A stretch of DNA of 64,000 nucleotides, from assembly GCA_964188305.1 (NCBI GenBank), contig OZ076888.1. The stretch is one strand, 5' to 3'. The first letter of the stretch is position 1. The number at the start of each line of letters is the position of its first letter. Below, one piece after another: positions 1 to 64,000 of the stretch. The notes beneath the pieces are model-generated. The model worked only from the letters and a program-made list of their open reading frames with translations. It had not been told where the DNA came from and searched no databases. Position numbers and translations under genes: made by a program. Origin of the DNA: Podarcis bocagei. Lineage: Eukaryota.

Positions 1-72
1 CTTTCCGCTTCAGGGAATGAGGCTTGGATTGGTGCGGTGGTGACCAAGCTGAGGTCTTGGTTGGGGCCGTGA
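1..72 (+). CDS. C-terminal fragment of element-encoded SGNH/GDSL hydrolase (5' part lies outside the window)
   Basis: Frame 1 reads LSASGNEAW..., matching the helix after the SGNH block V DxxH motif (H-L-S-x-x-G-N). Its position just before repeat B matches the SGNH ORF at 62749. Confidence 0.6.
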   Translation, partial: LSASGNEAWIGAVVTKLRSWLGP

Positions 73-639
73 GTGGTTTGGCGGTGAGCTGAGGGCTCCA
101 TGGCGGTTAGGCACTGGTTAAATTGGTGCTTGGAGGGGTAAGTGCCTACCCCTCCAAATGATGCGAATGGGAATTCCGTTAAAGGAAATCCAGGGGCTTG
201 CCATTCTTTCGTCCTTGTCCCCGGAGTCGGACTTGGGCCGTGCAAGCCCCACAGGAACATGAGGGTGAGAAGTAATGGTCTGGTGCCCAGCTTTATTTCT
301 CACCCAATACTTGTTTCCCACGCTGGCTTCCGCTGGTATCCGGAAGGCCAGCTCTGTCCCTGAGGGCAAGGACAGATAGTCGGAACCAGTGCCTAAGCAA
401 CCACTCACATTTTTGTATTTGAATAAAGTTGTGGCCAAAATTATGCCAAAAACCTTAAACAAAAATTGATGTGTGAAGTGTGAATTATTGGGGGGCTACT
501 GTGACTCAACACGCAAAGCGTGTTCTCCCTAGCAGAGAGCACGTGTTGCGGTTGGGAACAGGCCACCCTCCAGTGACTAGGCAAATTTAGTTGAATCCCG
601 ACCATTTAAATGGTTAAACTGGGTTGCTGGGGTGTTTTG

Positions 640-710
640 ATTGTTGCCAATTCGGAGGAGGGGTCAGAGTCTATATATACAGGGGCCAGACGTTGGCACG
701 GCCTCTTGGC
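640..710 (+). promoter_or_regulatory. Putative Pol II promoter in Ngaro repeat A (CCAAT, TATA, pyrimidine initiator)
   Basis: CCAAT 647-651, TATATATAC 672-680, CCTCTT 702-707. A TAAATAC followed 20-21 nt later by CCTCTT is kept in the diverged A copies at ~58716-58750 (+) and ~53636-53670 (-). Confidence 0.55.
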
Positions 711-2305
711 CATTTTGCATCGGATCACCCGCCCTCCCTCCCTTTAATAGGGGGGTATTTTATTTAAGCTGATCGCTTGACCTTGCTATGCCTGTCATGG
801 TGTCGTTCGCCTTGGTGCGGGGGCACGGTAGGAATTTTGCCATCTGGCTGATTGGCTGGTGCCATTTGGTTTTTGCCTACTGCGTAGCAAATCGTCACAA
901 CTTGTAAGGTTGGCGGTTAGGCACTGGTTAAATTGGTGCTTGGAGGGGTAAGTGCCTACCCCTCCAAATGATGCGAATGGGAATTCCGTTAAAGGAAATC
1001 CAGGGGCTTGCCATTCTTTCGTCCTTGTCCCCGGAGTCGGACTTGGGCCGTGCAAGCCCCACAGGAACATGAGGGTGAGAAGTAATGGTCTGGTGCCCAG
1101 CTTTATTTCTCACCCAATACTTGTTTCCCACGCTGGCTTCCGCTGGTATCCGGAAGGCCAGCTCTGTCCCTGAGGGCAAGGACAGATAGTCGGAACCAGT
1201 GCCTAAGCAACCACTCACATTTTTGTATTTGAATAAAGTTGTGGCCAAAATTATGCCAAAAACCTTAAACAAAAATTGATGTGTGAAGTGTGAATTATTG
1301 GGGGGCTACTGTGACTCAACACGCAAATAACTCCTACCAGAAATTTTGTCTAAAACAACAACAATCCACCTCATGCTATTTTTCCTTTTCCAGTAGCTGC
1401 CTTTTGAGCAGTACAGACCACCTGGTGACCATTTGCAAACTCAAAATAATTAGCCTTCAATTATTGCCAAGGAAATTGTCACCTGTTCTGTTTGCAAATC
1501 GCTGGCACTTTTGCCTTCCCCAATTAGTGGTGTTTACAGCCATCCCCTACTGGGTTGGAAGAGAAATAGGCAGCCTTCAAGCTAAGGAATGGTTGCTATT
1601 TACCAGTGTTTACATTCTGAATTATCCTGCTGGGATGTTTTTGAGGCACACATTGCAGTGGGTGGCCTGGAGGTGGTTTTATTACAAATGGAGAAGATAA
1701 AATTATTATTCATTCATGTCCGGGTTAGGTATACCTATCTTGTAAGTCTACAGAAATGAAATCACAAAAGCATGGGACTGCAAAGAACTGAAGGGTCATT
1801 TCGCCTAGCCCCTCTGCTTCAGGGCCCAATCAGAGAATAGTTGCATTGCAGAAAGGTGTTTTTTCTAACCAATTGTTCCAGATTTGTCTCTTATTGCTAC
1901 AACTGCTAAGAGTGCTGACATATTACACAGGCTCCACCCCTTTAAGAATAGAATGGACCTTTTCACATATTATACAGGTGCCACCCCTTTGAGAAAAGAA
2001 TGGGCCTTTTCACCTTGACTCCTGCTTTTGTAACTGCCAGCCTTGAATTTTTTAATGTCATCTAAATGGGGCTGCCCTTAAACACACCTTCAAAACCTTG
2101 ACTGCCATGGAATGAAGCAGTCCACTATTTTATGGACTGGGAGAATATATTCAGCCTGTATTATGTTAATTGCTATAGCTGCAAGCATGCTTCCAAGGCA
2201 AATTAAAATGGCTACTTTTGACCTTTAAACCCATGCATTGCCTGGAACCCAGATATCATAGTAACAGGAACCCTAGTCTGCCAGCTGTTCATGGTTGGTG
2301 TAGGC

Positions 2306-8289: not shown

Positions 8290-8649
8290 CAGTGGTACCT
8301 CGGTTACATACGCTTCAGGTTGTTGGGATACTGCCAGGGAGACAAAGGCCATCATGCCCCTGTGAACAGGAAATATGCAGGCTGTGACACAACAACCTGC
8401 TCCCCTTTTAAGGTGGAACGGAAATATCCTAACACAGGTTACATACGCTTCAGGTTACAGACTCCACTAACCCAGAAATAGTGCTTCAGGTTAAGAACTT
8501 TGCTTCAGGATGAGAACAGAAATCGTGCTCCGGCGGCGCGGCAGCAGCAGGAGGCCCCATTAGCTAAAGTGGTGCTTCAGGTTAAGAACAGTTTCAGGTT
8601 AAGAACGGACCTCCAGAACGAATTAAGTACTTAACCAGAGGTACCACTG
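8290..8649. mobile_element. Tc1/mariner (Tigger/pogo-like) MITE with a nested insertion
   Basis: TIR CAGTGGTACCTC...GAGGTACCACTG, TA on both sides; related copies at 16846, 18951 and 26439. Confidence 0.9.
8321..8434. mobile_element. 114-bp miniature solo-LTR-like insertion
   Basis: TGTTGGGATA...TATCCTAACA (9/10 inverted termini, TG...CA), flanked by 5-bp TSD CAGGT (8316-8320, 8435-8439); absent from the other copies of the host MITE. Confidence 0.75.
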
Positions 8650-12305: not shown

Positions 12306-12658
12306 AAGGTAAAGGTAAAGGGACCCCTGACCATTAGGTCCAGTTGTGGCCGACTCTGGGGTTGCGATGCTCATCTCGCTTATTGGCCGAGGGAGCCGGC
12401 GTACAGCTTTCGGGTCATGTGGCCAGCATGACTAAGCCTCTTCCGGCGAACCTGAGCAGTGCACGGAAACACCGTTTACCTTCCCGCCAGAGTGGTACCT
12501 ATTTATCTACTTGCACTTTGACGTGCTTTCGAACTGCTAGGTTGGCAGGAGCTGGGACTGAGCAACGGGAGCTCACCCCGTCGCAGGGATTCAAACCGCC
12601 AACCTTCTGATTGGCAAGTCCTAGGCTCTGTGGTTTAACCCACAGCGCCACCCGCATC
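12306..12658 (-). mobile_element. Sauria SINE (Squam1), full length
   Basis: tRNA-like head GCGGGTGGCGCTGTGGGTTAAACC; body GTGCAAGTAGATAAATAGGTACC; (ACCTTT)n tail; TSD TCTTGCTAGCTTA. Confidence 0.92.
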
Positions 12659-17085: not shown

Positions 17086-17460
17086 GGGAGAGGGTGGCGC
17101 TGAGGTCTAAACCACTAAGCCTCTTGGGCTTGCCTATTGGAAGGTCGGCGGTTCGAATCCCCATGATGGGGTGAGCTCCCATTGCTCTGTCCCAGCTCCT
17201 CCCAACCTAGCAGTTCAAAAGCACAACAGTGCAAGTAGATAAATAGGTACTGCTGCGGCGGGAAGGTAAATGGTGTTTCCATGCACCCTGACACTCGTCA
17301 TGGTGTTCCGTTGGGCCAGAATCAGTTTTGTCATGCTGGCCACATGACGTGGAAAGCTGTCTGTGGACAAACGCCGGCTCCCTTGGTCTGAAACAAGATG
17401 AGTGCCGCACCCCATAATTGCCTTTGACTGGACTAAGCCATCCGGGGTCCTTTACCTTTT
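17086..17460 (+). mobile_element. Sauria SINE
   Basis: Head GGGTGGCGCTG..AAACCAC; B-box GGTTCGAATCC; GTGCAAGTAGATAAATAGGTAC; tail CCTTTACCTTT; TSD TACTGCTACCT. Confidence 0.9.
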
Positions 17461-26101: not shown

Positions 26102-26220
26102 CCTGCCCATCTGGCTGTGTTTCCCCAGCAACTCTGGGCGGCTCCCAACCGAATATTAAAAACACAACACAGCCTTAAACATTAAAAACGTCCCTAAAAA
26201 GGGCTGCCTTCAGGTGTCCA
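26102..26220 (-). mobile_element. L2 LINE 3' UTR fragment
   Basis: Reverse complement of the ...CCCAGAGTGGCTGGGGA..CAGCCAGATGGGC 3' end seen at 40070-40105. Confidence 0.8.
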
Positions 26221-29745: not shown

Positions 29746-29860
29746 CTGAGCATAAAAAACAACAACCAAGAAAACTTTCAGTTGTAGAGAGTGAAGCCAC
29801 CAACATTCATAATTACCCAACTTGTAATATGTCCTTATGTTATGAGTAATGCTTGGCTGT

Positions 29861-30027
29861 GGTGCTCCGTTGCACCAGAAGCGGCTTAGTCATGCTGGCC
29901 ACATGACCCAGAAAAACTATCTGCGGACAAACATCGGCTCCCTCGGCCTGTAAAGCGAGATGAGCGACGCAACCTCAGAGTTGTCTGCGACTGGACTTAA
30001 CTGTCAGGGACCTTTATATTTTTTACC
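29861..30027 (+). mobile_element. Sauria SINE 3' half
   Basis: GTCATGCTGGCCACATGACC..CGGCTCCCTCGGCC..GAGATGAGC matches the other Sauria SINEs. Confidence 0.8.
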
Positions 30028-30823: not shown

Positions 30824-31045
30824 TTATTATTATTATTATTATTTATACCCCACCCATGTGTCTGGGTTTCCCCAGCCACTCTGGGCAACTCCCAGAACAT
30901 TAAAAACAGAATAAAACTTCAAACATTAAAAATTTCCATAAACAGGGCTGCCTTCAGATGTCTTCTAAAAGTCAGATAGTTGTTTATTTCCTTGACATCT
31001 GATGGGAGTTCCACAAGGCTGGTGCCACTACTGAGAAGGCCCTCT
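30769..31045 (-). mobile_element. L2 LINE 3' end with long (ATT)n tail
   Basis: Homologous to 39900-40170; the poly-Ile ORFs here come from the tail. Confidence 0.85.
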
Positions 31046-37811: not shown

Positions 37812-40119
37812 GAAGTGCCATGGTCAGATCACTTCCTGGTGCAACTGGACTTCTCTGCGACCCATCCCCTCTGCAGGGAGGTGGGACCAATTCGGATGGT
37901 CCGCCCCCGCCACTTAAAGGATCCAAATGGTTTCCAGAGAGTGGTAGGGGATGCTTTATCCCATGTTGATGGCCTTTCAGCTGATTCCCTGGTGGCCCGC
38001 TGGAATGTGGAGTTAACCAGGGCTATTGACTGTTTGGCTCCGAAGCGCCCTCTCCGATTGCATGGAGCCCGGACAGCCCCGTGGTTTTCCACGGATCTGA
38101 GGGCAATGAAACAATCGTTGAGACGGCTAGAGCGCCGGTGGCGGATAACTCATTCCGAATCTGACCGGACACAGGTTAGAGCTCAACGTCGAGCCTACCA
38201 AGTGGCGATAGCGACGGCGAAGAAGAATTTCTTCACCGCCTCTATTGCATCTGCAGAAAACAGCAGCAGGAGACTTTTTCAGGTGGTTCACAATTTAGCG
38301 GAACCACCTGCAACATCGGGGCCCCGTACGGGCCACATGTTCTCCTGCAATGACTTTGCAAAGTTTTTTGCAGATAAAATCGCTCAGATTCGGGAAGAAG
38401 TAGATTCCACCGTGGGAGCAGGACCGGGGCGGGAGAGTGCTAGAGTTCTGTCTAGTCAAGTTGAGTGGGATCAATTCCAATCTATTACCTCCGAGGATGT
38501 GGACAGGCTGCTTGGACGAGTGAAACCAACCACCTGTCTCCTGGATCCTTGCCCATCCTGGCTTATAAAAGCTAGCCGGGAAGGACTGGGTGATGGGCTT
38601 CGTGGGGTGGTGAATGCTTCCCTCCGTGAGGAAGCCTTCCCAGACCCGCTGAAAGAGGCGGTTATTAAACCGCTTCTTAAAAAACCATCTTTAGATGCGG
38701 CCACGATGGCCAACTATCGCCCAGTCTCAAATCTTCCATTCTTGGGCAAGGTGATTGAGCGAGTGGTTGCTGAACAACTCCAGGCACGCCTGGAAGAAGC
38801 GGACCATTTGGATCCCTTCCAATCGGGATTCAGGCCTCATCATGGGACTGAAACTGCCTTGGTCGCACTGGTTGATGATCTCCGGCGGGCTAGGGACAAA
38901 GGTGAGAGCTGTTTCCTAGTTCTGCTGGATCTCTCAGCGGCATTTGATACCATCGACCATAGCATCCTTCTGGACCGTCCTGAGGGGCTGGGAGCTGGGG
39001 GCACTGTTATACAGTGGTTCCGCTCCTTCCTCCTGGGCCGTGTTCAGAAAGTGGTGGTGGGGGATGAGTGTTCAGACCCCTGGGCTCTCACTTGTGGGGT
39101 GCCTCAGGGTTCTGTCCTCTCCCCCATGCTTTTCAACATTTACATGCAGCCGCTGGGAGAGATCATCAGGAGGTTTGGGCTGGGTGTTCATCAGTATGCG
39201 GATGATACCCAGCTCTACCTCTCTTTTAAATCAGAACCAGTGAAGGCGGTGAAGGTCCTGCGTGAGTGTCTGGAGGCGGTTGGAAGATGGATGGCGGCTA
39301 ACAGATTGAGGTTGAATCCTGACAAGACAGAAGTACTGTTTTTGGGGGACAGGAGGCGGGCAGGTGTGGAGGATTCCCTGGTCCTGAATGGGGTAACTGT
39401 GCCCCTGAAGGACCAGGTGCGCAGCCTGGGAGTCATTTTGGACTCACAGCTGTCCATGGAGGCACAGGTCAAATCTGTGTCCAGGGCAGCTGTTTACCAG
39501 CTCCATCTGGTACATAGGCTGAGACCCTATCTGCCTATCTGCCAGAGTGGTGCATGCTCTGGTTATCTCCCGCTTGGACTACTGCAATGCACTCTACGTG
39601 GGGCTACCTTTGAAGGTGACTCGGAAACTACAACTAATCCAGAATGCGGCAGCTAGACTGGTGACTGGGGGCGGCCGCCGAGACCATATAACACCGGTCT
39701 TGAAAGACCTACATTGGCTCCCAGTACGTTTCCGAGCACAATTCAAAATGTTGGTGCTGACCTTTAAAGCCCTAAACGGCCTCGGTCCAGTATACCTGAA
39801 GGAGCGTCTCCACCCCCATCATTCTGCCCGGACGCTGAGGTCCAGCGCCGAGGGCCTTCTGGCGGTTCCCTCATTGCGAGAAGCCAAGCTACAGGGAACC
39901 AGGCAGAGGGCCTTCTCAGTAGTGGCGCCCGCCCTGTGGAACGCCCTTCCAGCAGATGTCAAAGCGATAAACAACTACCTGTCATTCAGAAGACATCTTA
40001 AGGCAGCCCTGTTCAGGGAAGTTTTTAACGTGTGATATTTTACTGTATTTTTGGTTTTTATGGAAGCCACCCAGAGTGGCTGGGGAGGCCCAGCCAGATG
40101 GGCGGGGTATAAATAATAA

Positions 40120-53013: not shown

Positions 53014-53824
53014 GCTTGTCGAGGTCCCCAAGACACCCCAAATAAAAACACAATAACACTTAATTTTGTTTAAGGTTTTTGACATAATTTTGGCCACAAC
53101 TTTATTCAAATTACAGCAATGTGAGTGGTTGCTTAGGCATTGGTAGCACTAACTAACCCCGCACGGGGACAGCTCTGACATTCACACACCCCGCGAAGTC
53201 AGCAAGGGTAAGTCACCTGGGGAGAGAGACGGGACTGGGAACAATGCCTCACCTCTCCCCAGAATGCTCCCAGGGGCTTGCGTGGCCCTAGCCCCTTGCC
53301 AGGGGGTTTCGGACAAAAGCATGGGGAGCCCCTGGGTTCCTTTAACGGAAAACCCTTGCAGCAGCAGCAGCATTTTGGAGGGGCAGGCACAGCCAAATCC
53401 ATACCCCTCCACCAACCAATTTCCAAACCAATGCCTAACCGCAACCTTACAAGTTTTAATGATTTGCTACGCAGTAGGCAAAAACCAAATGGCACCAGCC
53501 AATCAGCCAAATGGACAAAATTCCTACCGGGCCCCTGCCCCAAAGCAGACGACCCCATGACAGGCATAGCAAGGTCAAACAAACAGCCTAGCATTAGGGA
53601 AGGGAGGGCAGGTGATCTGAAGCACGCAGCGAAAAGAGGAAGTTTGTCGCTGCGTGCAATGTATTTAACAAATAGGGCTGTCAATCAATAAACGGCAACA
53701 TATAAATTTCCCCAGTAACAGCCCGCCCCTGCTTAAAAGATGGCCAAACCATCAACAACCAGCAACAGTGAGGTGTCTCGTCAGCCCCCACCGCAACACG
53801 TGCTCTCCATGAGGGAGAACACGC
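53014..53824 (-). mobile_element. Solo A-spacer-B remnant of a Ngaro-type element
   Basis: Collinear with 518-1324 (GCGTGTTCTCCC start, spacer, B repeat, AATAAAGTTGTGGCCAAAATTATG); no coding sequence. Confidence 0.85.
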
Positions 53825-56800
53825 TTAAACAGATAGACAAATATATTGTGTGATGGATTTCAGTTGTACCCACCCTTCACAACAGAATTATTCTGGACAT
53901 CTGGAGTCTCTGAACCTGATTCAAAATGAATCTAGTTTCTGGATCAAGGTGTCACCATGAATAGAGACTTTACAGAATTCTGACTGGATAGTTTGAAAAT
54001 AGGAAGCACAGTGTTGTTCTGACTTATGATTGAATGCATGTGAAAGAGTCATAGAACACACACACACATATGCTGATCTGTACCTCCATTCAGACAAGGG
54101 ATAGACAGTTTTGTGCAGTCAGAATAATTCAGTGACTGTGTGAACATACAACTTTACGCTGCATCTGGTGGTGGTATGAAGAATGGGAAAGGGAGGGGTT
54201 GCATTATTTTAGGATAAAGAATACCTTGCACAAGAAAAGGGATGCTTTGAGGAGGGCACTAAAGCTTTCCATGTGTAAAATGTTTTGTCTGTTGGAAATA
54301 TTCAAGCGTGGAACTCTTTCTCTTTCCTTGGTCATCTGAAATGCTACAGTCCAGGAAAAGCTTACCCATTTGATTCTGCTGAGTGTATGAACTTGGCTGT
54401 ATGCTGTGTCATATCTTCAAGCAGATCTCAACCCCCAAAATCTGGTGCTGGGTCTCCTTATAAGAGGCAAAAAAAGTATGGTAGATGCAGTGGTCTAACA
54501 CTCAAGCATATCAGATGCAATGCTCTAATATTCATTCATGCCTCTTTAATTACTTCAAAAGCAGTTGGACCAAAAATGTGTTTATAAAATGCAACACAGA
54601 GACCCATGCTATAAGCAGGTTGCCAATATTACTTCAGTGTGTAATCATAATTTGTCAATACTTGTTTTAAATGAAAACAACTTTTTAATTAAAAATATCT
54701 GACTGCCTGACAATATGTATTGGAAAAATGTAAATAATGTATACAAATTGTTAAGTGCAGGGATAAAGTATATGTGAGTGTTTGTACATATATAATTTTC
54801 TAGGCTATTTTCAGTAAGGAACTGAATGCAGTTTATAAGAAGAAAAATAAACATTGCACAAACCTGAGCATTCCACATACAAATTACTTTGAGTGCTTGC
54901 ATCACCTCAGTTTGTGAACTATTTGTATTGCAAGTAAATCTAATAGCAATAAAACGAGACAGGTGTCTTTCTGTCTTCTTAAATGAATAAATAAAATAGG
55001 CAAGCAACAACAGTGGCATCACACTGTTAAGGCACAGATGTGTTTAGCAATTAATAACATAAACACCAATAGCTCTCAGTGATGTAGTGTTATGATTTAA
55101 AAATAGCAGACTTCATTTATATGACAGGCAAGGAAGTGTCCCTTAAAAAATGCTTCTCTGAGTTACAAATGATAATGTTGCTTAATGCATCTGATCACTC
55201 CGAGGATGATAGGAGCATTTTAGGACTTCTGATTACTCCTAGGATGATAATAGTAAATCCATGATTCTTGGCACATCATGAGCTTAGACCCCGCAAAGCT
55301 ATGTGGATTTGCTATGGAGTCTTGCGCACTAGGAGACATAACCTGTAGAGACTTTACTGGCATGTTCCTAGGTTGTCTCATATGACATCAGGCATGGAAG
55401 TGTTCGAGCCATGGGTGTAAAGGAAATTGTAGTTGTGGCTTGAATTTTTAATAATTTTAGTGCAAACATCTCCCAATACACTCCTTTTTATATTACATTT
55501 TTGCAAGCAAAGTCCCCTAATATAAAGCATTATATGTTATTTTCACTAATATATGGATTACTATGTACATTTTCCCCAACACACATCTTTTTGTTCACAT
55601 TATTTGGTTGGAGAACTGTATCACACTTATGAAAGTCAAAGGATAATTTGCACTTCAATTCACATATTGTTTCAGGAAGTTTGAATTACAAATGCGAACT
55701 GAACCCAATTTCTCTCCCATCCCTATTACTGTCATTTCTCTTCTCTCTTTCCCAAAGTCAACCTGCCCACTTTATTTTGGGGAGTGGGAAGGTAGAGGCA
55801 GATGTGACCCCCACACACCTGCCATAGTGCATTTTCATTCCAAGAACTGGCACAGGAACTACAAGCCCCGGGATCCTCAGTGGGAAACCAACACCCACTG
55901 TTGTTGTTTTTCTTTGAGAAGATGTCAGTGTTAATTTCCTGTTCTATTCTAGAGTTTGCAGTTCCACTCCTTGGTGAGAAAAGATGGTCCTGCAGGTATA
56001 CAGGGAAACCCACTGCTGCTGAGTGAGCTTCTTCTACATAATCCTTCTTCAAAATAAGCTTGGAGCCAGCAGCAGTGATGGCAGGTGCTGCCAGGTTATT
56101 TCAAGTATTTGAATCAAACATTCAACAAGCCTCTTGAGGAAAGTTCTCATCCCTAGTCTTTCTCCCTCTCTCCCTTAAAGTCTAACAGACTCCCACTTAC
56201 ATCTCTTTTCCTTCCCCACCTTAGGATGAAGCCTAAGCCCTCTTCAACTCATGGATATTCCATTAGTCCTCGGGAAATTACTTTAGCTTCCTCAGAATGC
56301 AGATAGATGCTTCAAGTTACCAGGCTTTGGTGTTTTCGTCAACGTTCAAAGTCACTTTGAATTGGCGATGGATTATTACTGTATATTTGTGAATCTATGT
56401 GTCAAAGATTCCATATAGGAGAAAGGCAAAACACTATCCAGTAGAATAATAAGATGTGATAGAGCACTGTGAAGAGGATGATTGATTGAATGGAGAACGA
56501 CACAGAGACAGAAAGATGTAGCACTCTGAGAAGTGGAGACAAATGCAAAAGAAAATGGAATATATTAAGGGGAAGAACAACATAATTAGAACAATACCAT
56601 GTGATAAGAACTTAAATTTTCATATTGCTTTCCACTCCTGACCTCTTTGCAAACACCTCAAAGAGAACCCATCACTCACTCCTAGAATTCAGTAATCTCT
56701 AAGGTGAAGGCGAGGGGGAAACACAGGCTACGGAAATGTTGTAAAGTGAGGTAAGGTGAGGTGGGGGACTGAAAGGAAAGGATTATATGCAGAGGGAAAA

Positions 56801-59799
56801 GGACACAACTTAATACCTAATACGAGAGTAAATGTCCAAGCCCTTCATTTTAATAAGTAAATGGATAAGGTAGGTAAACATGTGACAGTCTACTGCATGA
56901 GATAAAAGACAGCTAAAGCTTCAGGGAACAATGTATTTCACAAGGACTGCCAACCCTCTGCCCAAACCAGTTTTATATCCTACATTCATAATTTTGAAGC
57001 ATGGCAAATTGATAGAACAACTGTAAAGACAAAACATTATGAAGACTTTTTTTGGGAGAGAGATATGAAAAACTCTGGTGTAAAACCTATTGAATTTCAC
57101 AGGATGTGCTTCTGAGCAGACATGATTGGGATTGCAGTATTAATTTCTGCTGCTGGTTTTGCTATTTGAATTTTATTTAGATTTGTCTCTTGATTTATTA
57201 TACTCAACACTGTTTTGTTGCATTAGTTTATTTTAAGATATTGTAATCTGCCATGAGCAAGAATTTTGCCTAGAAAGGTGGGGTATTTACATTTTAATAT
57301 AAATGTGCACATATTCAGTAGCGCCTTCTCATTAGTGACTGCAGCCTAGTTCTCAAAATATCCAGTCACTTAAAGGCAACATTGAGGATCCCTCTCCACC
57401 TCCAAAAGTAAATAATTATAAATGCATGTTTGCACTAAGCGGTACAAGTAAATATTCAACACATGTAGGTACAAAACAGTGGTGCTTCAGACTGATCTGC
57501 TTTGTGTCCAGTTCAGATCTTACTGCATATAAAATTGTGCTAAGACAATATGAATAGCTTTGATGGATGAGGCTGGTGGTGATCGCTATATATGCAACAG
57601 ATGTAGATAATAGATGTTATTATGTTCAAGAACACAGTGCATGGAAGTATCCTATGAAATGTTGTTCACAGGCTCGTTTTGGCATTCTGTATTCCATCAC
57701 CCACAATTATAGTTATTGATATTCTAACCCTCCATTAGTTAGACTAGATATCCTATTGACCTTTTATGGACCAGCTCACAATTTATCACCACTGAAATAC
57801 AAGCTGTAGAAACCCCCCCTCCCCTTTTGCAACTCTAGAACATTATAAATGAGTCTATTTCCTGTATAAGTCTTATTTAATAGTAAAAAAAGCTTAGACT
57901 CATCCATCTGCTGTCAGTGATACCGGAAGTATGGACATGAATTATGACCTCTTGTGGATGACCCTGAAATCTTCAGATATCGGCTAGCTGGAGATTTATA
58001 GCTGTTTTGTTCATGCATTTTATAATTTAGTAACACCAATAATTCTCTTTTATCTGAAATGAGGCATATAGTGCCTCCAGCCCACTTCATCCCTGCTTCT
58101 ACTGCAAATGTTGCAGGGTGCTAATAATTAAGTATATAACAGCCCTTTTTTACTTAGAGAATCTCTTACATTAAGGAAGCATCACTTATTTTATAGAATA
58201 ACATATCCATAGACATGAAATGTGTCTTATTTTAGACCAAAATGTTACCATGAAACCTCAAAGAGCAGACGCCATAGTGTCCCTTATTTTAAACTAACTC
58301 CCCACAGCATTAGGAAAAAGGTTTTTCTGTTTTCTGAGAATAATAATAATAATTCATTTTATTTCTATACTGCAGTGGAACTTGTGCATTGATGCATCTA
58401 ATTTTCTTTTTCCAATTTTCATGCATTTAAACCCCACCTTTCTTCTGTCATGGAGTCCAAGGTGCTATACATGTGGTTTCAAGGCAGTTACCCATCAAGG
58501 CACTGACCATGCTGTTATTTTATGCCATTAGCCTGCTTTGTACAAGCTAAACTGTGGCTTAAGCATGTTCTCCCTAAATGAGAGCATGTGTTGCGGTTGG
58601 GGAATACAGGCCACCCTGGTGTGATTGGGCAAGTTGGATAACCCAGGCCTTAAGTGGTTAACTGGGTTACTGGGGAGTTTTGTATGTTGCCAATTCGGAG
58701 GAGGGGTTTGGAGCCTTTAAATACAGGTCGCCATTGCTGGGCGTCCTCTTGGCCTTTTTGCACCGGATCACATGGAGCACTGGGACAATCTTCTCATTGT
58801 CTGGTTACATTTCTTTATTTCTTTATTTCCCCTTTCTTTTTAATCCTCTCTAGTCCCTTAAATAATTTAATTCCCCCCTTTTCCTGTTCAATTTCCCACC
58901 CCACCCCTTACCCTGCCCTGTGGGAAGATTCTCCCTGTATCTGTGGCTTGCCTTTACCAATAGTGAGAGAGCCCCCGTTAGGGGCTTTCTTTCGCAAAAA
59001 GGTTTCCCCCATTTCTCTTGTTGAAATTGTGGGGCTAGTCAGGGCTGTTCCCAGCTTAGCTGGTATCACTTTCGTTTATAGTATCCCCGAAGGTTGGCTT
59101 TATGGCTCCCTGTGCCTCCAAGGACTATGAGCACTCTGTATATGCTCTTGAACTATGCTGTTTCTGAACAAGTTTATTTTCTTTAAGTTTGTTTTGCCCT
59201 GATAGTGGCGACTGCCATTTTAGAGATGAGCCATTGTGGCTTGGTGGCTAAAGTGTAGGACTAGGACCTGGGAGACAGGGTTCATATACCCCTCTTAGCC
59301 ATTGTTATAACAAAACAAAACAAACTGCCCCTTATGGGCTATTCTGTTGCTGGGTAGTTCGGCCCATTTGTGATAAAAGAACTTTGGGTTTCTTGAAGGG
59401 GTGCTTCCCTCTAAAAGGGAAGCAGGGGTACCTGGACAAGCTGTGGGCTACCTCAACTCTGCTATTTCAGTGGAAACATTTATGCCTGGCCTAGCAGGTG
59501 ATCCTAGGGCTTTGCCCTAGAATTCTATGGCCTGGAAGCGTTTCCGGCCTCAATAGTGTCCCCATGTGGTCCATGAAGCATTGGTTTCACTGGGTCAGTG
59601 GATAGTGCCGGTAATGCCTAGGTTGCAGGATTGGTCCCTGTATGGGACAGCTGCATGCTCCCCCATTGCTCTACCTGGACACTTAAGTCCTTTTGGTGGT
59701 TACCTCACTGCGAGGGATGTAACGGGCGCCATGTTTGCAATATGCAACTGGGAGAAAGCACCTTTGCGTGCCCGCATTGCAGTTTGCTCTGTGCGTTGC

Positions 59800-60395
59800 A
59801 GAGCACGGCGCTGCACGGGCTGCAATTGCATTGCATTGCTAGGAGATTTGCAGTTGCATTGCACGGAGGGTGTGTGCATTGCATGGAGGGTGTGTGTGCA
59901 TTGCATGGAGGGTGTGTGTGCATTGCACGGAGGGTGTGCAGTGCACGGAGGGTGTAGTTGCATTGCATGGAGTGTAGTTGCATTGCATGAAGGGTGTGTG
60001 CATTGCAGGGAGTGTGTAGTTGCATTGCATGGAGGGTGTAGTTGTATTGCACAGAGTGGTTTTTTTTTTTGTTTGCATTGCCCGGAGTGTGTGTGCATTG
60101 CACGGAGTATGTAGTTGCATTGAACAGAGGGTGTGCAGTGCACGGAGTGTGTAGTTGCATTGCATGGAGTGTAGTTGCATTGAATGAAAGGTGTGTGCAT
60201 TGCAGGGAGTGTGTTTTGCATTGCACGGAGTGTGTAGTTGCATTGCACGGAGGGTTTGTGTGTGCATTGCATGGAGTGTGTAGTTGCATTGCACAGAGCG
60301 TGCTTTTTGCATTGCACGGAGTGTGTAGTTGCATTGCATGGAGAGTGTGTGCACTGCACGGAGTGTGGTTTTTTTTTGCATTGCACAGAGTGTGT
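59800..60395. repeat. Minisatellite of ~20-22-bp units TGCATTGCA(C/T)GGAGTGTGTAGT inside the Ngaro gag region
   Basis: Read directly; produces long overlapping low-complexity Cys/His ORFs on both strands. Confidence 0.92.
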
Positions 60396-60714
60396 GTCTG
60401 AAAAGGAAGCTGGCTTGGCGGCAGCTTGGTTGGGACTTCTTTAGGGGTTCTGGCCAGCGTCGGCCCTGTAAATTTACATATCATGATGGCAGCACAAGAT
60501 GCCCCCTGCCCGAGCGGGGGCTGGAAGCTGGCAAGCAATAGCTCAATACCTTTTGCCCATATTCCCATTTTATTTAGGGATCCAGTTGGATATCGTTGCT
60601 AAAACATACCACTTGGCTATGGAGAAGCTGTCTGCCTTGAAGGAAGTTATTTTGTAATACTTCCTCTGTAGCAAGTGATGCTTCACCAGATCCGATCTTG
60701 CTGGGTCACTTAAC

Positions 60715-61160
60715 TAATCTTCCCACTAGGCCAGGCTGCCTAGATTTCACCCCTCCCATATCCAAGAATCTCCTGAGGAGTCTGCTGATTCTCCAGAGAG
60801 GAGGAGGCGTGTTCTGGTCTCTACTTATTCTGCTCCAGCACCAAATCAGTCAGTCAGTCAGTCAGTGTCGGAGAGAGAGAGAGACTGAGTGTTAGAGATC
60901 ATGTGTAGAGATAAGGCTGCTGCTAAGGACAGCTGCAGACACTCAGTGCAGTGCAGCATTTATTTATGCTTAGACCTATTAAGCTCTGTATATAGTTTGT
61001 ATAGTTGTAAATAGAATAAAGAAGATATTCTACAGAGCTGCTCTCCGAGTTGTTTATATACTCTGCTAGACTCTGCTGTACTCTGCTGTGCGACAACTGT
61101 CTTTTGTTGGAGTGAATCCGGTGCTCACAACTCTAAGCTGTGAGTCCACAGCACTTTGAC
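60715..61160 (+). mobile_element. LTR-like insertion interrupting the Ngaro RT/RNase H
   Basis: Non-coding; (CAGT)n and (GA)n tracts; AATAAA near 61015 then a GT-rich stretch; RT-RNase H homology is interrupted here. Termini not resolved. Confidence 0.45.
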
Positions 61161-63406
61161 CTGTTCATGTGCAGAAGGTGGTCTCTGGAAGTGCTACCCA
61201 GCTCGCCTAGCCCAGTTGGGGCTGAAGTGGATGAGTCCAGTTGGTGGCACTGGCTCAAGGGCGATGCTGACAGAGGTCCCCTTACCTTTTTGTATGCCTA
61301 CCAAGTGTGGTGAAGGCAGATATCAGGCGATGGTAGCAATTCCTGAATGTATGCAATAGTAGTTCGCCATGGCAGGATACCTTGAACCCGCTCAGGGATT
61401 TTCAGGTTCATGCTGGTGCTGCTGGATCTTTGCCCTTTGGTTTTTATTTCAAGGGCTGCTGGTGTGCAAAGCTATGGCCTCAAGCCCTGTGTGGTGAGGC
61501 AATCATGTGACATAACTTTTCTTGAGTTTTCCCCATTGTAGTAGCAGTTCACGTGGCCCGAGGAGTTCAGTGACCATCGGATCTGCTTTTGGTCTGATAA
61601 CCAGGTAGTGGTGAGCGTCTTGGCAAAACAGTCCTCATGCTGTAGCACAGTCTCCGCCCCTCCGCTCATGCTTTCGAGCTGCGCCACTTAAGGTTTAATA
61701 TTGTGCTTTCTACTCTCCAAATTACGCTGACACTATCTGATTTTCAGATGAAGCGCTTCAGATCCTGGGCTCCAGACTCAGCTATTGCCAGACTTTTCCA
61801 GACCTGTGGCATTTTGACAACAATTAGTAATTTCAGAGAGCGGCAGCTTCCATTTCCCCTTCTGCTTTTACCTCTTATGGGAAGGCCTGGATGGATTTCT
61901 TAGCCTTAAGCTGGCAGTTCTCGGCCATTCAGAAGAATTGGCCCCCATCCTCTGAGCAGATCCTGCAGTATTTGGTCCACCTGCTGCAGATTGGGCATGC
62001 GGTTATAACTATCCGAATTCAGTCCGCTGCAATGTCTGTTACATTGAAGCTTTATTTTTCAGAGACCCTTGTATAAAGTTTGCAGTGCGCAGGGCCTTGG
62101 AAGGTTGGAATAGGCTCCAACCTCATAGGACAGTGGGCAGGGAGTCGGTCAATTTTTACCTATGCAGTATCTGCAACAAGTTAAAACTTGTCTGCGGGTT
62201 AAAGATCAAGGTGAGACTCCTTTCAGTAGTCCATTGCATTTTCGCACTGAGGGTTGGGGAAATGGTTGTTGGAGCCAGCACGGGGCTGAGAGTCTGGAGG
62301 CTTATTGCTTCAGGACTTTTCCTTTGGAGCTTGTCATTAGAGTTGGTACCTCTAAAACAGACTTAGTGGGCAGGAGTGCCACAATCAGGCTTCCTGCCAC
62401 AGGTGAGGAGGGCCCTTGCCCAGTTATGGATAACAGAATATTGGCTTTTTATTCCCTGGGGGCTGGCCCGCTCCTAGTGCATGAAAATGGGTTCCCGTTA
62501 GCCCGGCATCAATGTGCTTACATCGTGCACCAGTTATTACAGCCTGCGGCTTGCTTACCGCTGAACACTCCTCATTTCTTACGATTAGGTGCTGCTGCAA
62601 AGGCTGCACACTGGGGGCCTGTCAGTAGACAGGATTGTGAATACGGGTCATTGGAAGTCTGACGCTGACAAGGGTTATATCAGGAAGTGTCACAGTGATG
62701 TCTGTGCTGATGCTTGTCTGTTATTTCCTTTTTTTTTTTTTTTCATAGGAGCAGCTGTGCACATTTGAGCCACAGCATTGTACACTAGGCTGGCAAGCAT
62801 GTTGACGAGTTTGGACTGGGGCGCCATCTCAGTCTTCCTGCCCATGTGAACATATACTGGATGTCCAGATGGGGAATGCTTTGGGAGGAGATCCTTCCTT
62901 TGGTGCGGTCGAGTGTGACCTGTGCAGGTCCTCCCGCAGTGCTGGTGGTACAGCTGGGCGAGAATGTTTGCTGTCTTCCTCCAGCATAAGTTTGCATTCC
63001 TGCATGCAAGAGGGCTTGGATTGAGTTGATGGCAGCTCTCCCTGGACTCAAAATAATTTAAGGCATTGGTTCAAGGTGGTTTGGAGGGGGGGTTGGAGCA
63101 CCTGTCCCCTCCAATGCGCAAAGATGTTCCATTAAGGGAATCCAAGGATTCGCCATGCTTTTGTCGACCCCTTTTGAGGGGTAGGGCCATGCAAGAGTCC
63201 CTGGGAGCATTTGGGGTGAGCTTGAGTCTGATCCTGGTTCATTGCTCCCCCATGCTGTTTACTGGAACTGACGATATGGTGGGGCCCAGTCGTCAGTGCT
63301 GCCCTGCTGAGGTCAGGTGCAGCTAGTCGGGAACCAATGCCTAGACAAACTACCACCGAGCAGGCCAGAAAGCATGTTAATAAGGCGGTGGATAATAGAA
63401 TAAAAT

Positions 63407-64000
63407 AGGATCGGGGCTGCCACGACTGCAGCACACTGGGGTCTGTCAGCCGACAGAATAAAGGATCTGGGTCGCTGGAAATCGAACGCGTTTAAAAGTT
63501 ATGTTCGCTAACATTTTGGTATGCTTATATTTTGTTTGCTTGTTTATCCCAGGTTTAGCGGCTGTCCGCATCTGGATGGTGTGGCACAGTATCGTGCATT
63601 GGGCTGGCATCAGAACCCGGCAGTCCGGATTGGGAACAGGTCTCGGCCTTCCTCCACATGTCCACTTGTCTTGGCTGTCCAGATGGGGAATGCGCTGGTC
63701 AGAGTTCCTGCCATTGATTCGGAGGCAGATGTTTTTGGAAGGGCCGCCCACGGCTATTGTGGTGCAGCTGGGTGAGAACGACCTGGTTTCCATGGACTGT
63801 TTTTCTTTACGTGCGGCAATCCTGGGTGACCTGGAGGTGCTGCGGTCTATGATGCCGTCAGCAAAAATTTTTTGGTCAAAGCTTTTGCAACGACGCGTTT
63901 GGAGTGGCAGTCGTTGCCCAGCCGCCACCGAAAGGGCCAGAAAACGTATCAATTCTGTGGTGTCGAAAAAGATTTTGGAGCTGGGTGGTGATGTGATTTC
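63407..64000 (+). mobile_element. Second, better-preserved Ngaro-type fragment (YR C-terminus plus SGNH ORF), running off the window
   Basis: 63407-63511 encodes RIGAATTAAHWGLSADRIKDLGRWKSNAFKSYVR* (catalytic R, W, Y region of a YR), followed by an open SGNH frame. Confidence 0.88.
63501..64000 (+). CDS. Element-encoded SGNH/GDSL hydrolase, 3' incomplete; omitted by the ORF track because no stop lies in the window
   Basis: MFANILVCLYFVCLFIPGLAAVRIWMVWHSIVHWAG...LSRWGMRWSEFLP..GPPTAIVVQLGENDL..KIFWSKLLQRRVW..ERARKRIN; blocks I (xHS), II (G) and III (GxND). Confidence 0.75.
   Translation, partial: MFANILVCLYFVCLFIPGLAAVRIWMVWHSIVHWAGIRTRQSGLGTGLGLPPHVHLSWLSRWGMRWSEFLPLIRRQMFLEGPPTAIVVQLGENDLVSMDCFSLRAAILGDLEVLRSMMPSAKIFWSKLLQRRVWSGSRCPAATERARKRINSVVSKKILELGGDVI

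Follow-up and report, generated by a model that had tools for sequence, protein, structure and literature searches.

A predicted splice joining the N-terminal half of ORF1 to an SGNH esterase in Ngaro-like elements of lacertid lizards

Ngaro-like elements in a 64,000-nucleotide stretch of Podarcis bocagei DNA (the window) carry the features of a 3' splice site immediately ahead of their SGNH esterase. Comparison with related proteins argues that splicing to this site is probably the main mode of expression of the enzyme, and that it joins the N-terminal half of ORF1 to the esterase. That the RNA is actually spliced we infer from the comparison of annotated fusions with unspliced ORF1 proteins. 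The spacer between the recombinase stop codon and the esterase would then be the 3' end of a large facultative intron, and intact elements of this lineage would make two ORF1 products from one start. The unspliced RNA, which would also carry RT/RH and the recombinase, would yield an ORF1 protein of about 507 aa with N-terminal helices, a disordered Ser/Arg/Pro linker, an Arg-rich motif, a conserved core and a zinc finger. In the spliced RNA a phase-1 donor at about Gly224 of ORF1 would be joined to the esterase acceptor, removing the ORF1 core, the zinc finger, RT/RH and the recombinase and leaving a cytoplasmic ORF1N-esterase fusion of about 414 aa. The new element is the splice that joins the ORF1 N-terminus to the esterase; the hydrolase ORF itself, as well as spliced subgenomic RNAs in LTR elements, are known already.

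Ngaro copies in the window and their acceptor regions

Several Ngaro pieces are found in the window, namely a 3' end (101-1327), a minus-strand remnant, an older copy and a young copy (Table 1). In agreement with the assignment to Ngaro in the first-pass annotation, the split direct repeats A1 ... B1-A2-B2 are present, with B1 (101-517), A2 (516-910) and B2 (911-1327) in the 3' end at the window start and an A-like repeat at 58561 at the head of the older copy, and a tyrosine recombinase lies directly upstream of the hydrolase. Judged from its repeats and gene order, the element is Ngaro-like; RT/RH is too degraded for a clade assignment in the older copy, where what we take to be RNase H-like words occur at ~61400-61640, and absent from the young copy. 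The recombinase parts of relatives match Pfam Phage_integrase weakly, under the curated cut-off. A Pfam scan of ten window ORFs returned nothing meaningful, the partial young-copy esterase ORF matching no Pfam family, and a PDB sequence search with the window esterase ORF gave a single weak, unrelated match. B1 and B2 of the copy at 1-1327 do not differ at any of their 417 nt (100% identity), which suggests that this copy inserted recently, and the 3' end belonging to the young copy itself lies past the window end.

Table 1. Coordinates of the Ngaro features in the 64,000-nucleotide window
Feature	Position	Strand	Remark
3' end, another copy of the young family	1..1327	+	last 22 esterase codons at 1-66
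A1-type 5' repeat, older copy	58561..58771	+	78% identical to A2 at 516-728
Remnant of ORF1 C-terminal zinc finger, older copy	60407..60481	+	all that the search for the donor region recovered
Degraded tyrosine recombinase, older copy	62040..62687	+	pieces over three frames
Acceptor region, older copy	62698..62748	+	ATGs at 62698 and 62710; CTGAT 62707-62711; T15 run; TAG 62746-62748
Degraded SGNH exon, older copy	62749..63058	+	carries a stop and frameshifts; breaks off near residue 120
B-type repeat piece (63061-63348), then stray 47-nt SGNH fragment (63353-63399)	63061..63399	+	fragment abuts the young copy
C-terminal 35 codons of tyrosine recombinase, young copy	63404..63511	+	76% identity to the recombinase part of P0046
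ATG formed from recombinase Tyr (TAT) and Val (GTT) codons	63501..63503	+	in frame with the esterase
Branch-point-like GCTAAC	63507..63512	+	its TAA is the recombinase stop
T-rich, AG-free tract	63513..63549	+	22 T among 36 nt (63513-63548); encodes the hydrophobic 'leader'
CAG, predicted 3' splice site	63550..63552	+	interrupts a Gly codon in phase 1; coincides with the junction Gly in 16/18 ORF1-esterase models
SGNH esterase exon	63553..64000	+	no stop codon up to the window end; catalytic block V falls past it
Block I, Trp-His-Ser (TGG at 63582)	63582..63590	+	nucleophile Ser present; Gly at the Trp position in 36/38 homologues
Block III, GEND, intact	63771..63782	+	present in 38/38 homologues

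Further repeats lie in the same DNA. The minus-strand remnant (53064-53826) is a non-coding A/B repeat of a related Ngaro, 70-76% identical to the 3' end at the window start. Dispersed short repeats, probably SINEs or MITEs, occur at 8430-31045 and 39905-40119 and form several families, one with copies at 8430, 16846, 18951 and 26439, another at 12325-12624, 17123-17355 and 29860-30009 and another at 26102-26218, 30836-31045 and 39905-40119.

The young copy starts inside the recombinase, and its ORF1 and donor are absent. Its recombinase ends in Tyr-Val-Arg-stop (stop codon 63509-63511). The ATG in the last recombinase codons, the GCTAAC, the T-rich tract and the phase-1 CAG ending at 63552 are all located where they had been described from the sequence alone. 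The ATG, which lies 8 nt ahead of the recombinase stop, is probably incidental, and a second, out-of-frame ATG at 63521 likewise opens a hydrophobic peptide. From the putative branch A at 63511 it is 41 nt to the AG of the predicted splice site, with no other AG between GCTAAC and this CAG. The proposal that block I, Trp-His-Ser, is a mutated Gly-His-Ser is supported by the homologues (Table 1). Given its 5' truncation, the missing donor and a Trp in place of the conserved block-I Gly, the young copy is probably a dead or inactive fragment, unable to make the fusion in cis.

The first-pass annotation had ascribed both an ATG-led leader and a 3' splice site to the older copy as well. A strong acceptor-like site is there, with CTGAT as a branch-like sequence, whereas the ATG at 62698 is at a non-homologous place, the recombinase Tyr-Ile of this copy giving ATA where the young copy has ATG. 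The reading frame is broken twice, by the one-base offset already described within the T15 run and by a further frameshift between the post-AG frame and the frame reading HSIVH. In the DNA as it stands, the recombinase frame of the older copy has no stop ahead of the AG, and the spacing from Tyr to AG is 72 nt, compared to 52 nt in the young copy.

Both acceptor-like sites are above chance. Of 8635 AG dinucleotides on both strands of the window, 28 (0.3%) are YAG sites whose pyrimidine content and AG-free stretch match those of 63552, whilst 3 (0.03%) equal 62748 on the same measures, each count including the site itself. The 3' end features of a U2-type intron, i.e. branch point, pyrimidine tract, AG-free zone and YAG, are seen in both window copies.

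In the older copy the middle of ORF1, the part that would contain the donor, was not recovered, and within 58800-61300 there is no GT site that matches the donor consensus at 7/9 bases. A short resemblance to the ORF1 N-terminus at ~59480-59530 was noticed by eye, was not recovered by the profile and was rejected. A minisatellite array of ~20-22-nt units occupies 59830-60400, inside the ORF1 of this copy, where donor and core would be expected. Towards the young copy, 63058-63404 runs from the break in the esterase through a B-type repeat and an esterase fragment to the young recombinase, which makes it a rearranged or a nested junction.

The donor in ORF1 and the fusion models

A set of 38 close homologues of the esterase was analysed, comprising 18 models joined to ORF1, 4 with recombinase pieces, 4 long Zootoca models, 11 short proteins and 1 without block I. 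All named homologues are from lacertids (Podarcis, Zootoca), with identities of up to 85%. Among the catalytic motifs, DGVH is present in 33/38, next to the GEND and block-I Gly listed in Table 1. A Gly residue 11 positions before the block-I His, the position of AG/G in the window, is present in 16 of the 18 ORF1-esterase models (P0015 and P0038 lack it), and all four long Zootoca models (two loci) join at the same Gly; these counts include some redundancy, since one locus number covers both P0025 and P0026 and the domain sequences of three Zootoca entries do not differ. On the esterase tree, models with this junction, 51-82% identical to P0024, are found on distinct branches, and the junction is seen in P. 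muralis (RefSeq) as well as in P. lilfordi (P0002), two Podarcis species. The count of label changes on this tree was no lower than after shuffling, and the tree was used only for the spread of the fusion models. The long Zootoca vivipara models (P0033-P0036) are multi-isoform RefSeq entries of 1030-1570 aa, named after their low-complexity content, with the esterase exon at the C-terminus.

Residues 1-226 of the fusion model P0024, used as a query, gave 34 matching proteins. Of these, 20 were new; 19 of the new ones have 377-565 aa, one is truncated at 252, and four come from Logan contigs. All 20 continue past the junction Gly, as Gly-Thr-Ser (18) or Gly-Met-Ser (2), and in all except the truncated one the core and a Cys/His zinc finger follow. 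Over the 45 residues up to this Gly, 15/18 fusion models are 76-100% identical to an ORF1 protein (100% for P0027/P0193 and P0028/P0186), compared to 0-10% over the next 10 residues, and the profile homology between fusion models and ORF1 proteins ends at the Gly. A single donor residue is common to 17/18 tested models. It is the Gly that comes after the Arg-rich motif and a Ser run, at about residue 224 of ORF1, and it is invariant in 19/19 aligned ORF1 proteins despite its location within the disordered Ser run. Read from the amino acids, Ser/Thr/Ala-Gly-Thr/Met-Ser fits a phase-1 donor with an exon-final G and an intron-initial GT, and the exchange of Thr and Met suggests an ACG codon at the putative donor. 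An earlier proposal, a Gag-esterase fusion made by splicing, is thus supported in so far as the splice is concerned; the part of ORF1 that would be retained is the N-terminal half, and the core and zinc finger would be excluded.

Some properties of the ORF1 proteins themselves were also recorded. Their Cys/His finger resembles zf-CCCH weakly (E 0.001-0.014). A capsid identity of the ORF1 core is not claimed, as the model of the unspliced ORF1 had a pLDDT of 42 and gave no fold match; look-alikes of the core in the Atlas are unnamed eukaryotic clusters and serve as a lead only. In one ORF1 subfamily (P0182, P0184, P0186, P0187, P0191, P0023 and P0028) the segment with the Arg-rich motif is duplicated in tandem. 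Of the two units only the second retains the donor Gly, and the fusion models join at that one.

Every junction considered is an annotation model; gene predictors are drawn to strong acceptors, and RefSeq models may copy one another via protein evidence. The fusions might be annotation artefacts or cryptic splices of derepressed transcripts, with the T-rich spacer being incidental and the esterase being made from an internal promoter, from an internal Met or by read-through from the recombinase. Models that join recombinase to esterase do exist (P0008, P0016 and P0018 attach recombinase pieces to the same acceptor, starting from two points), and such model junctions can be unreliable or cryptic. 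In P0173 and in the older window copy, recombinase and esterase share one frame, and several short proteins have their initial Met slightly within the domain (P0012, P0049). Yet these recombinase-joined models differ in their joining points, while the ORF1-joined ones share one donor residue, invariant in the aligned ORF1 proteins although it lies in a disordered Ser run. Moreover, the two acceptors of the window are among the strongest 0.3% of AGs, and read-through requires frame 0, which is absent from most copies. We consider this explanation very unlikely. The Logan contigs yielded no fusion, with 0 of 24 'longer' matches and 0 fusion matches from the N-terminal search; all 12 Logan proteins (8 + 4) are unspliced or partial forms. 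If the predicted splice is real, many 'uncharacterized' lizard gene models would be transposon transcripts. The exact junction is given here and can be checked in existing RNA-seq data.

The peptide encoded by the T-rich tract

The 5' end of the esterase frame had also been read as a signal peptide, and the main product could accordingly be a separate secreted or membrane-targeted esterase, made by termination-reinitiation at the overlapping ATG. The 8-nt overlap of start and stop, a purine at -3 and the 17-21 hydrophobic residues followed by small residues are compatible with this, as is the env-like gene position; GDSL esterases are described as ORF3 of rotifer LTR elements (PMC5408684). However, the hydrophobicity of the leader appears to be largely accounted for by the base composition. 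Its best 10-residue hydropathy is 3.08, compared to 2.16 +/- 0.66 in shuffles of the tract, 8% of which reach the observed value. Random window DNA averages 0.33, and another frame (+2) of the same tract scores 2.97. Of the T-rich YAG sites in the window, 1/22 reaches the hydropathy of the observed leader. Most of the hydrophobicity is explained by the T content (22 of 36 bases), and what resembles an export signal would seem to be a side effect of the splice site.

Start codon and frame were not conserved across copies with full-length esterase ORFs, which need not be active elements. Where the recombinase tail aligned with confidence, the leader is in frame +1 without ATG in P0007 (Ile at the place of the ATG), in frame +2 in P0006 and P0020 and in frame 0 in P0173. 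In lower-scoring alignments, P0001, P0003 and P0004 have frame +1 with ATG, as in the window, and these four have in-frame ATG leaders of 16-17 residues; P0009 has an in-frame ATG leader by eye only. Leader frames were low-scoring and unreliable for P0005, P0009, P0010, P0011, P0071 and P0094, which were left out of the count save for P0009, entered on the reading by eye. The first-pass annotation had named loss of the ATG or frame in intact copies as evidence against the signal peptide, and this applies in part: an in-frame ATG leader persists in five copies, and ATG or frame is lost in several with full-length ORFs. All three frames occur, and the ATG follows from the coding of Tyr (TAT) and Val, disappearing with Tyr-Ile in P0007 and the older window copy. 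In addition, a search of predicted proteins favours copies with a chance in-frame ATG. Reinitiation as the main mode is in our view highly improbable.

The leader is also poorly conserved, with an identity of 24% over the 10 residues before the Gly, compared to 61% after it and 74% in the domain. Next to the junction, in 10/10 unspliced leaders with the Gly, as well as in the window, the residue before it is Ser, Pro or Leu, in keeping with YAG/G, which requires a codon that ends in a pyrimidine and A. Of the other leader residues, 56% are compatible with the acceptor and 44% could not fit; the chance of 11 compatible residues would be ~0.002 if they were independent, which the leaders in fact are not. 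As far as these alignments go, what the unspliced leaders have in common is a pair of residues compatible with the acceptor, while ATG, frame and sequence vary.

The two modes might be combined, with the spliced fusion as the main product and a minor, leader-bearing esterase made from the unspliced RNA of some subfamilies. The five young-lineage copies with an in-frame ATG leader, and a window leader that scores above 92% of its own shuffles, would be in line with such dual use. As in-frame copies are over-sampled by protein prediction and the leader shows the low conservation given above, we regard it as very improbable.

The predicted fusion protein, related systems and distant homologues

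A defined splice would change the expected protein from a stand-alone or secreted enzyme of ~190 aa to an ORF1N-esterase of ~414 aa, expected in the cytoplasm with the RNA-protein complex of the element, and would also indicate how its amount could be controlled. In the model of P0024, helices at residues 35-69 precede a disordered stretch (70-220) that closes with the Arg-rich motif; the SGNH domain comes next, at 231-414, where pLDDT is mostly about 85-98. A fold search with this model gave 161 PDB matches at E<=0.001. Those listed are SGNH-type or designed scaffolds and include TesA (E 4e-8) and the ZfL2-1 esterase 4C1B (E 3.9e-7); the esterase of the family, as modelled, has an SGNH fold.

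ZfL2-1 ORF1p combines a coiled coil and an Arg-rich motif with an esterase that is active and binds liposomes (PMC3905857). The predicted fusion resembles it in the helical N-terminus, the poorly conserved linker, the Arg-rich motif, the C-terminal SGNH domain and the lack of a folded RNA-binding domain. The likeness is one of predicted architecture and implies no special kinship, as bacterial SGNH folds score equally or better. Furthermore, ZfL2-1 ORF1p is one contiguous ORF1 of a non-LTR element, whereas the protein proposed here would be assembled by splicing and would exist alongside another ORF1 product. As an analogy, ZfL2-1 suggests that the N-terminus common to both products may recruit the esterase to the ribonucleoprotein of the element, and that the esterase may bind or remodel membrane lipids.

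The closest known arrangement is that of Xenopus DIRS-53_XT and DIRS-54_XT, described with A1...B1-A2-B2 repeats and the order ORF1, RT/RH, recombinase, SGNH hydrolase (PMC9210276). The hydrolase is there a separate, fourth ORF 'with no proven function', whereas here it appears to be the second exon of an ORF1 fusion. A Ngaro hydrolase ORF of unproven function is thus known already (PMC9210276, PMC6681497). In the main text of PMC9210276, 'splic' and 'intron' occur 0 times. In the available text of PMC7192593, 'spliced' refers to an artificial reporter intron, and that of PMC9341512 and PMC3783388 holds nothing on a spliced Ngaro esterase. No report of a spliced esterase of Ngaro (tyrosine-recombinase) elements was found in the literature searched, with Repbase, subscription papers and the founding papers lying outside it.

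Comparable RNA strategies are described for LTR elements. In insect endogenous retroviruses of the idefix subclade, a spliced subgenomic RNA joins env to a Gag peptide (10.1101/2023.08.03.551782). The parallel is a downstream ORF expressed from such an RNA and fused to a Gag peptide; however, the product there is an envelope glycoprotein of an LTR/integrase element, and here it would be an esterase that keeps ~224 ORF1 residues, in an element with a tyrosine recombinase. The facultative intron of the plant Ty1/Copia element EVD likewise yields full-length and subgenomic RNA (PMC5580714), but its short-GAG splicing gives pure GAG, while in the splice proposed here the ORF1 core would be lost and an enzyme gained. 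The GDSL ORF3 of bdelloid Vesta LTR elements also encodes an esterase that follows the replication genes, in a place like that of env; these belong to another element class, and their ORF3s are said to lack TM and coiled-coil parts (PMC5408684). The predicted splice would thus make a tyrosine-recombinase element a user of a retrovirus-like expression strategy, and would strengthen the case that unrelated retroelements have converged on an RNA-binding-plus-esterase protein.

A profile search at E<=0.001 found 2414 clusters at 50% identity. Among the best 150 of the 2414, 143 were new, and block I could be placed in 112 of these: 52 with a long N-terminus, 28 short, 21 long or multi-domain and 11 joined to other element ORFs, the remaining 31 lying outside the classification. 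The N-termini of the 52 are long and mostly of low complexity, with the ORF1 core motif in 0/52, a short coiled-coil-like helix in 9 and a basic cluster in 12; the class has misfiled members, P0125 being RT/RH-like by eye and P0117 belonging to a host-like group. A hydrophobic N-terminus is found in 3 of the 52, of which P0172 resembles a true signal peptide. Of the short distant proteins, 3/28 are signal-like by a crude signal-peptide rule, which also speaks against reinitiation. Unrelated upstream parts precede the same esterase start in pairs of proteins such as P0118/P0150 and P0095/P0103, which we count in favour of splicing. We infer that the distant entries, which come without names or context, are Ngaro gene models. 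Look-alikes of the esterase in the Atlas are mainly from chordates and molluscs.

Tentatively, and with somewhat less than even confidence in the whole taken jointly, these observations may reflect a facultative Ngaro intron conserved animal-wide, in chordates and molluscs, that gives two ORF1 isoforms with a shared N-terminus, one with the Gag core and zinc finger and one with the lipid esterase. The isoforms would co-assemble so that particles carry a membrane-active enzyme; the spliced RNA, in which A1 and B1-A2-B2 would be retained, could serve as template for non-autonomous elements that lack the intron; and the terminal exon would have been captured repeatedly by host genes. If true, an animal-wide intron would amount to convergence on the esterase-ORF1p of LINEs by way of a retrovirus-like splice.

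Two groups of long proteins with Ngaro-type SGNH domains were observed besides. In P0130, P0135, P0156, P0160, P0165, P0166, P0175, P0177 and P0048, cold-shock (CSDE1-type) domains are combined with a C-terminal Ngaro-type SGNH domain. These long proteins fall into several separate 50% clusters, and P0048 has four SGNH repeats and PRY/SPRY; they may represent an esterase exon that a host gene domesticated long ago. P0039, P0040, P0042, P0043, P0050 and P0062 have 1200-3100 aa and 2-6 tandem SGNH domains, often with an altered block I, and it is possible that they are host genes that arose from repeated exon capture.
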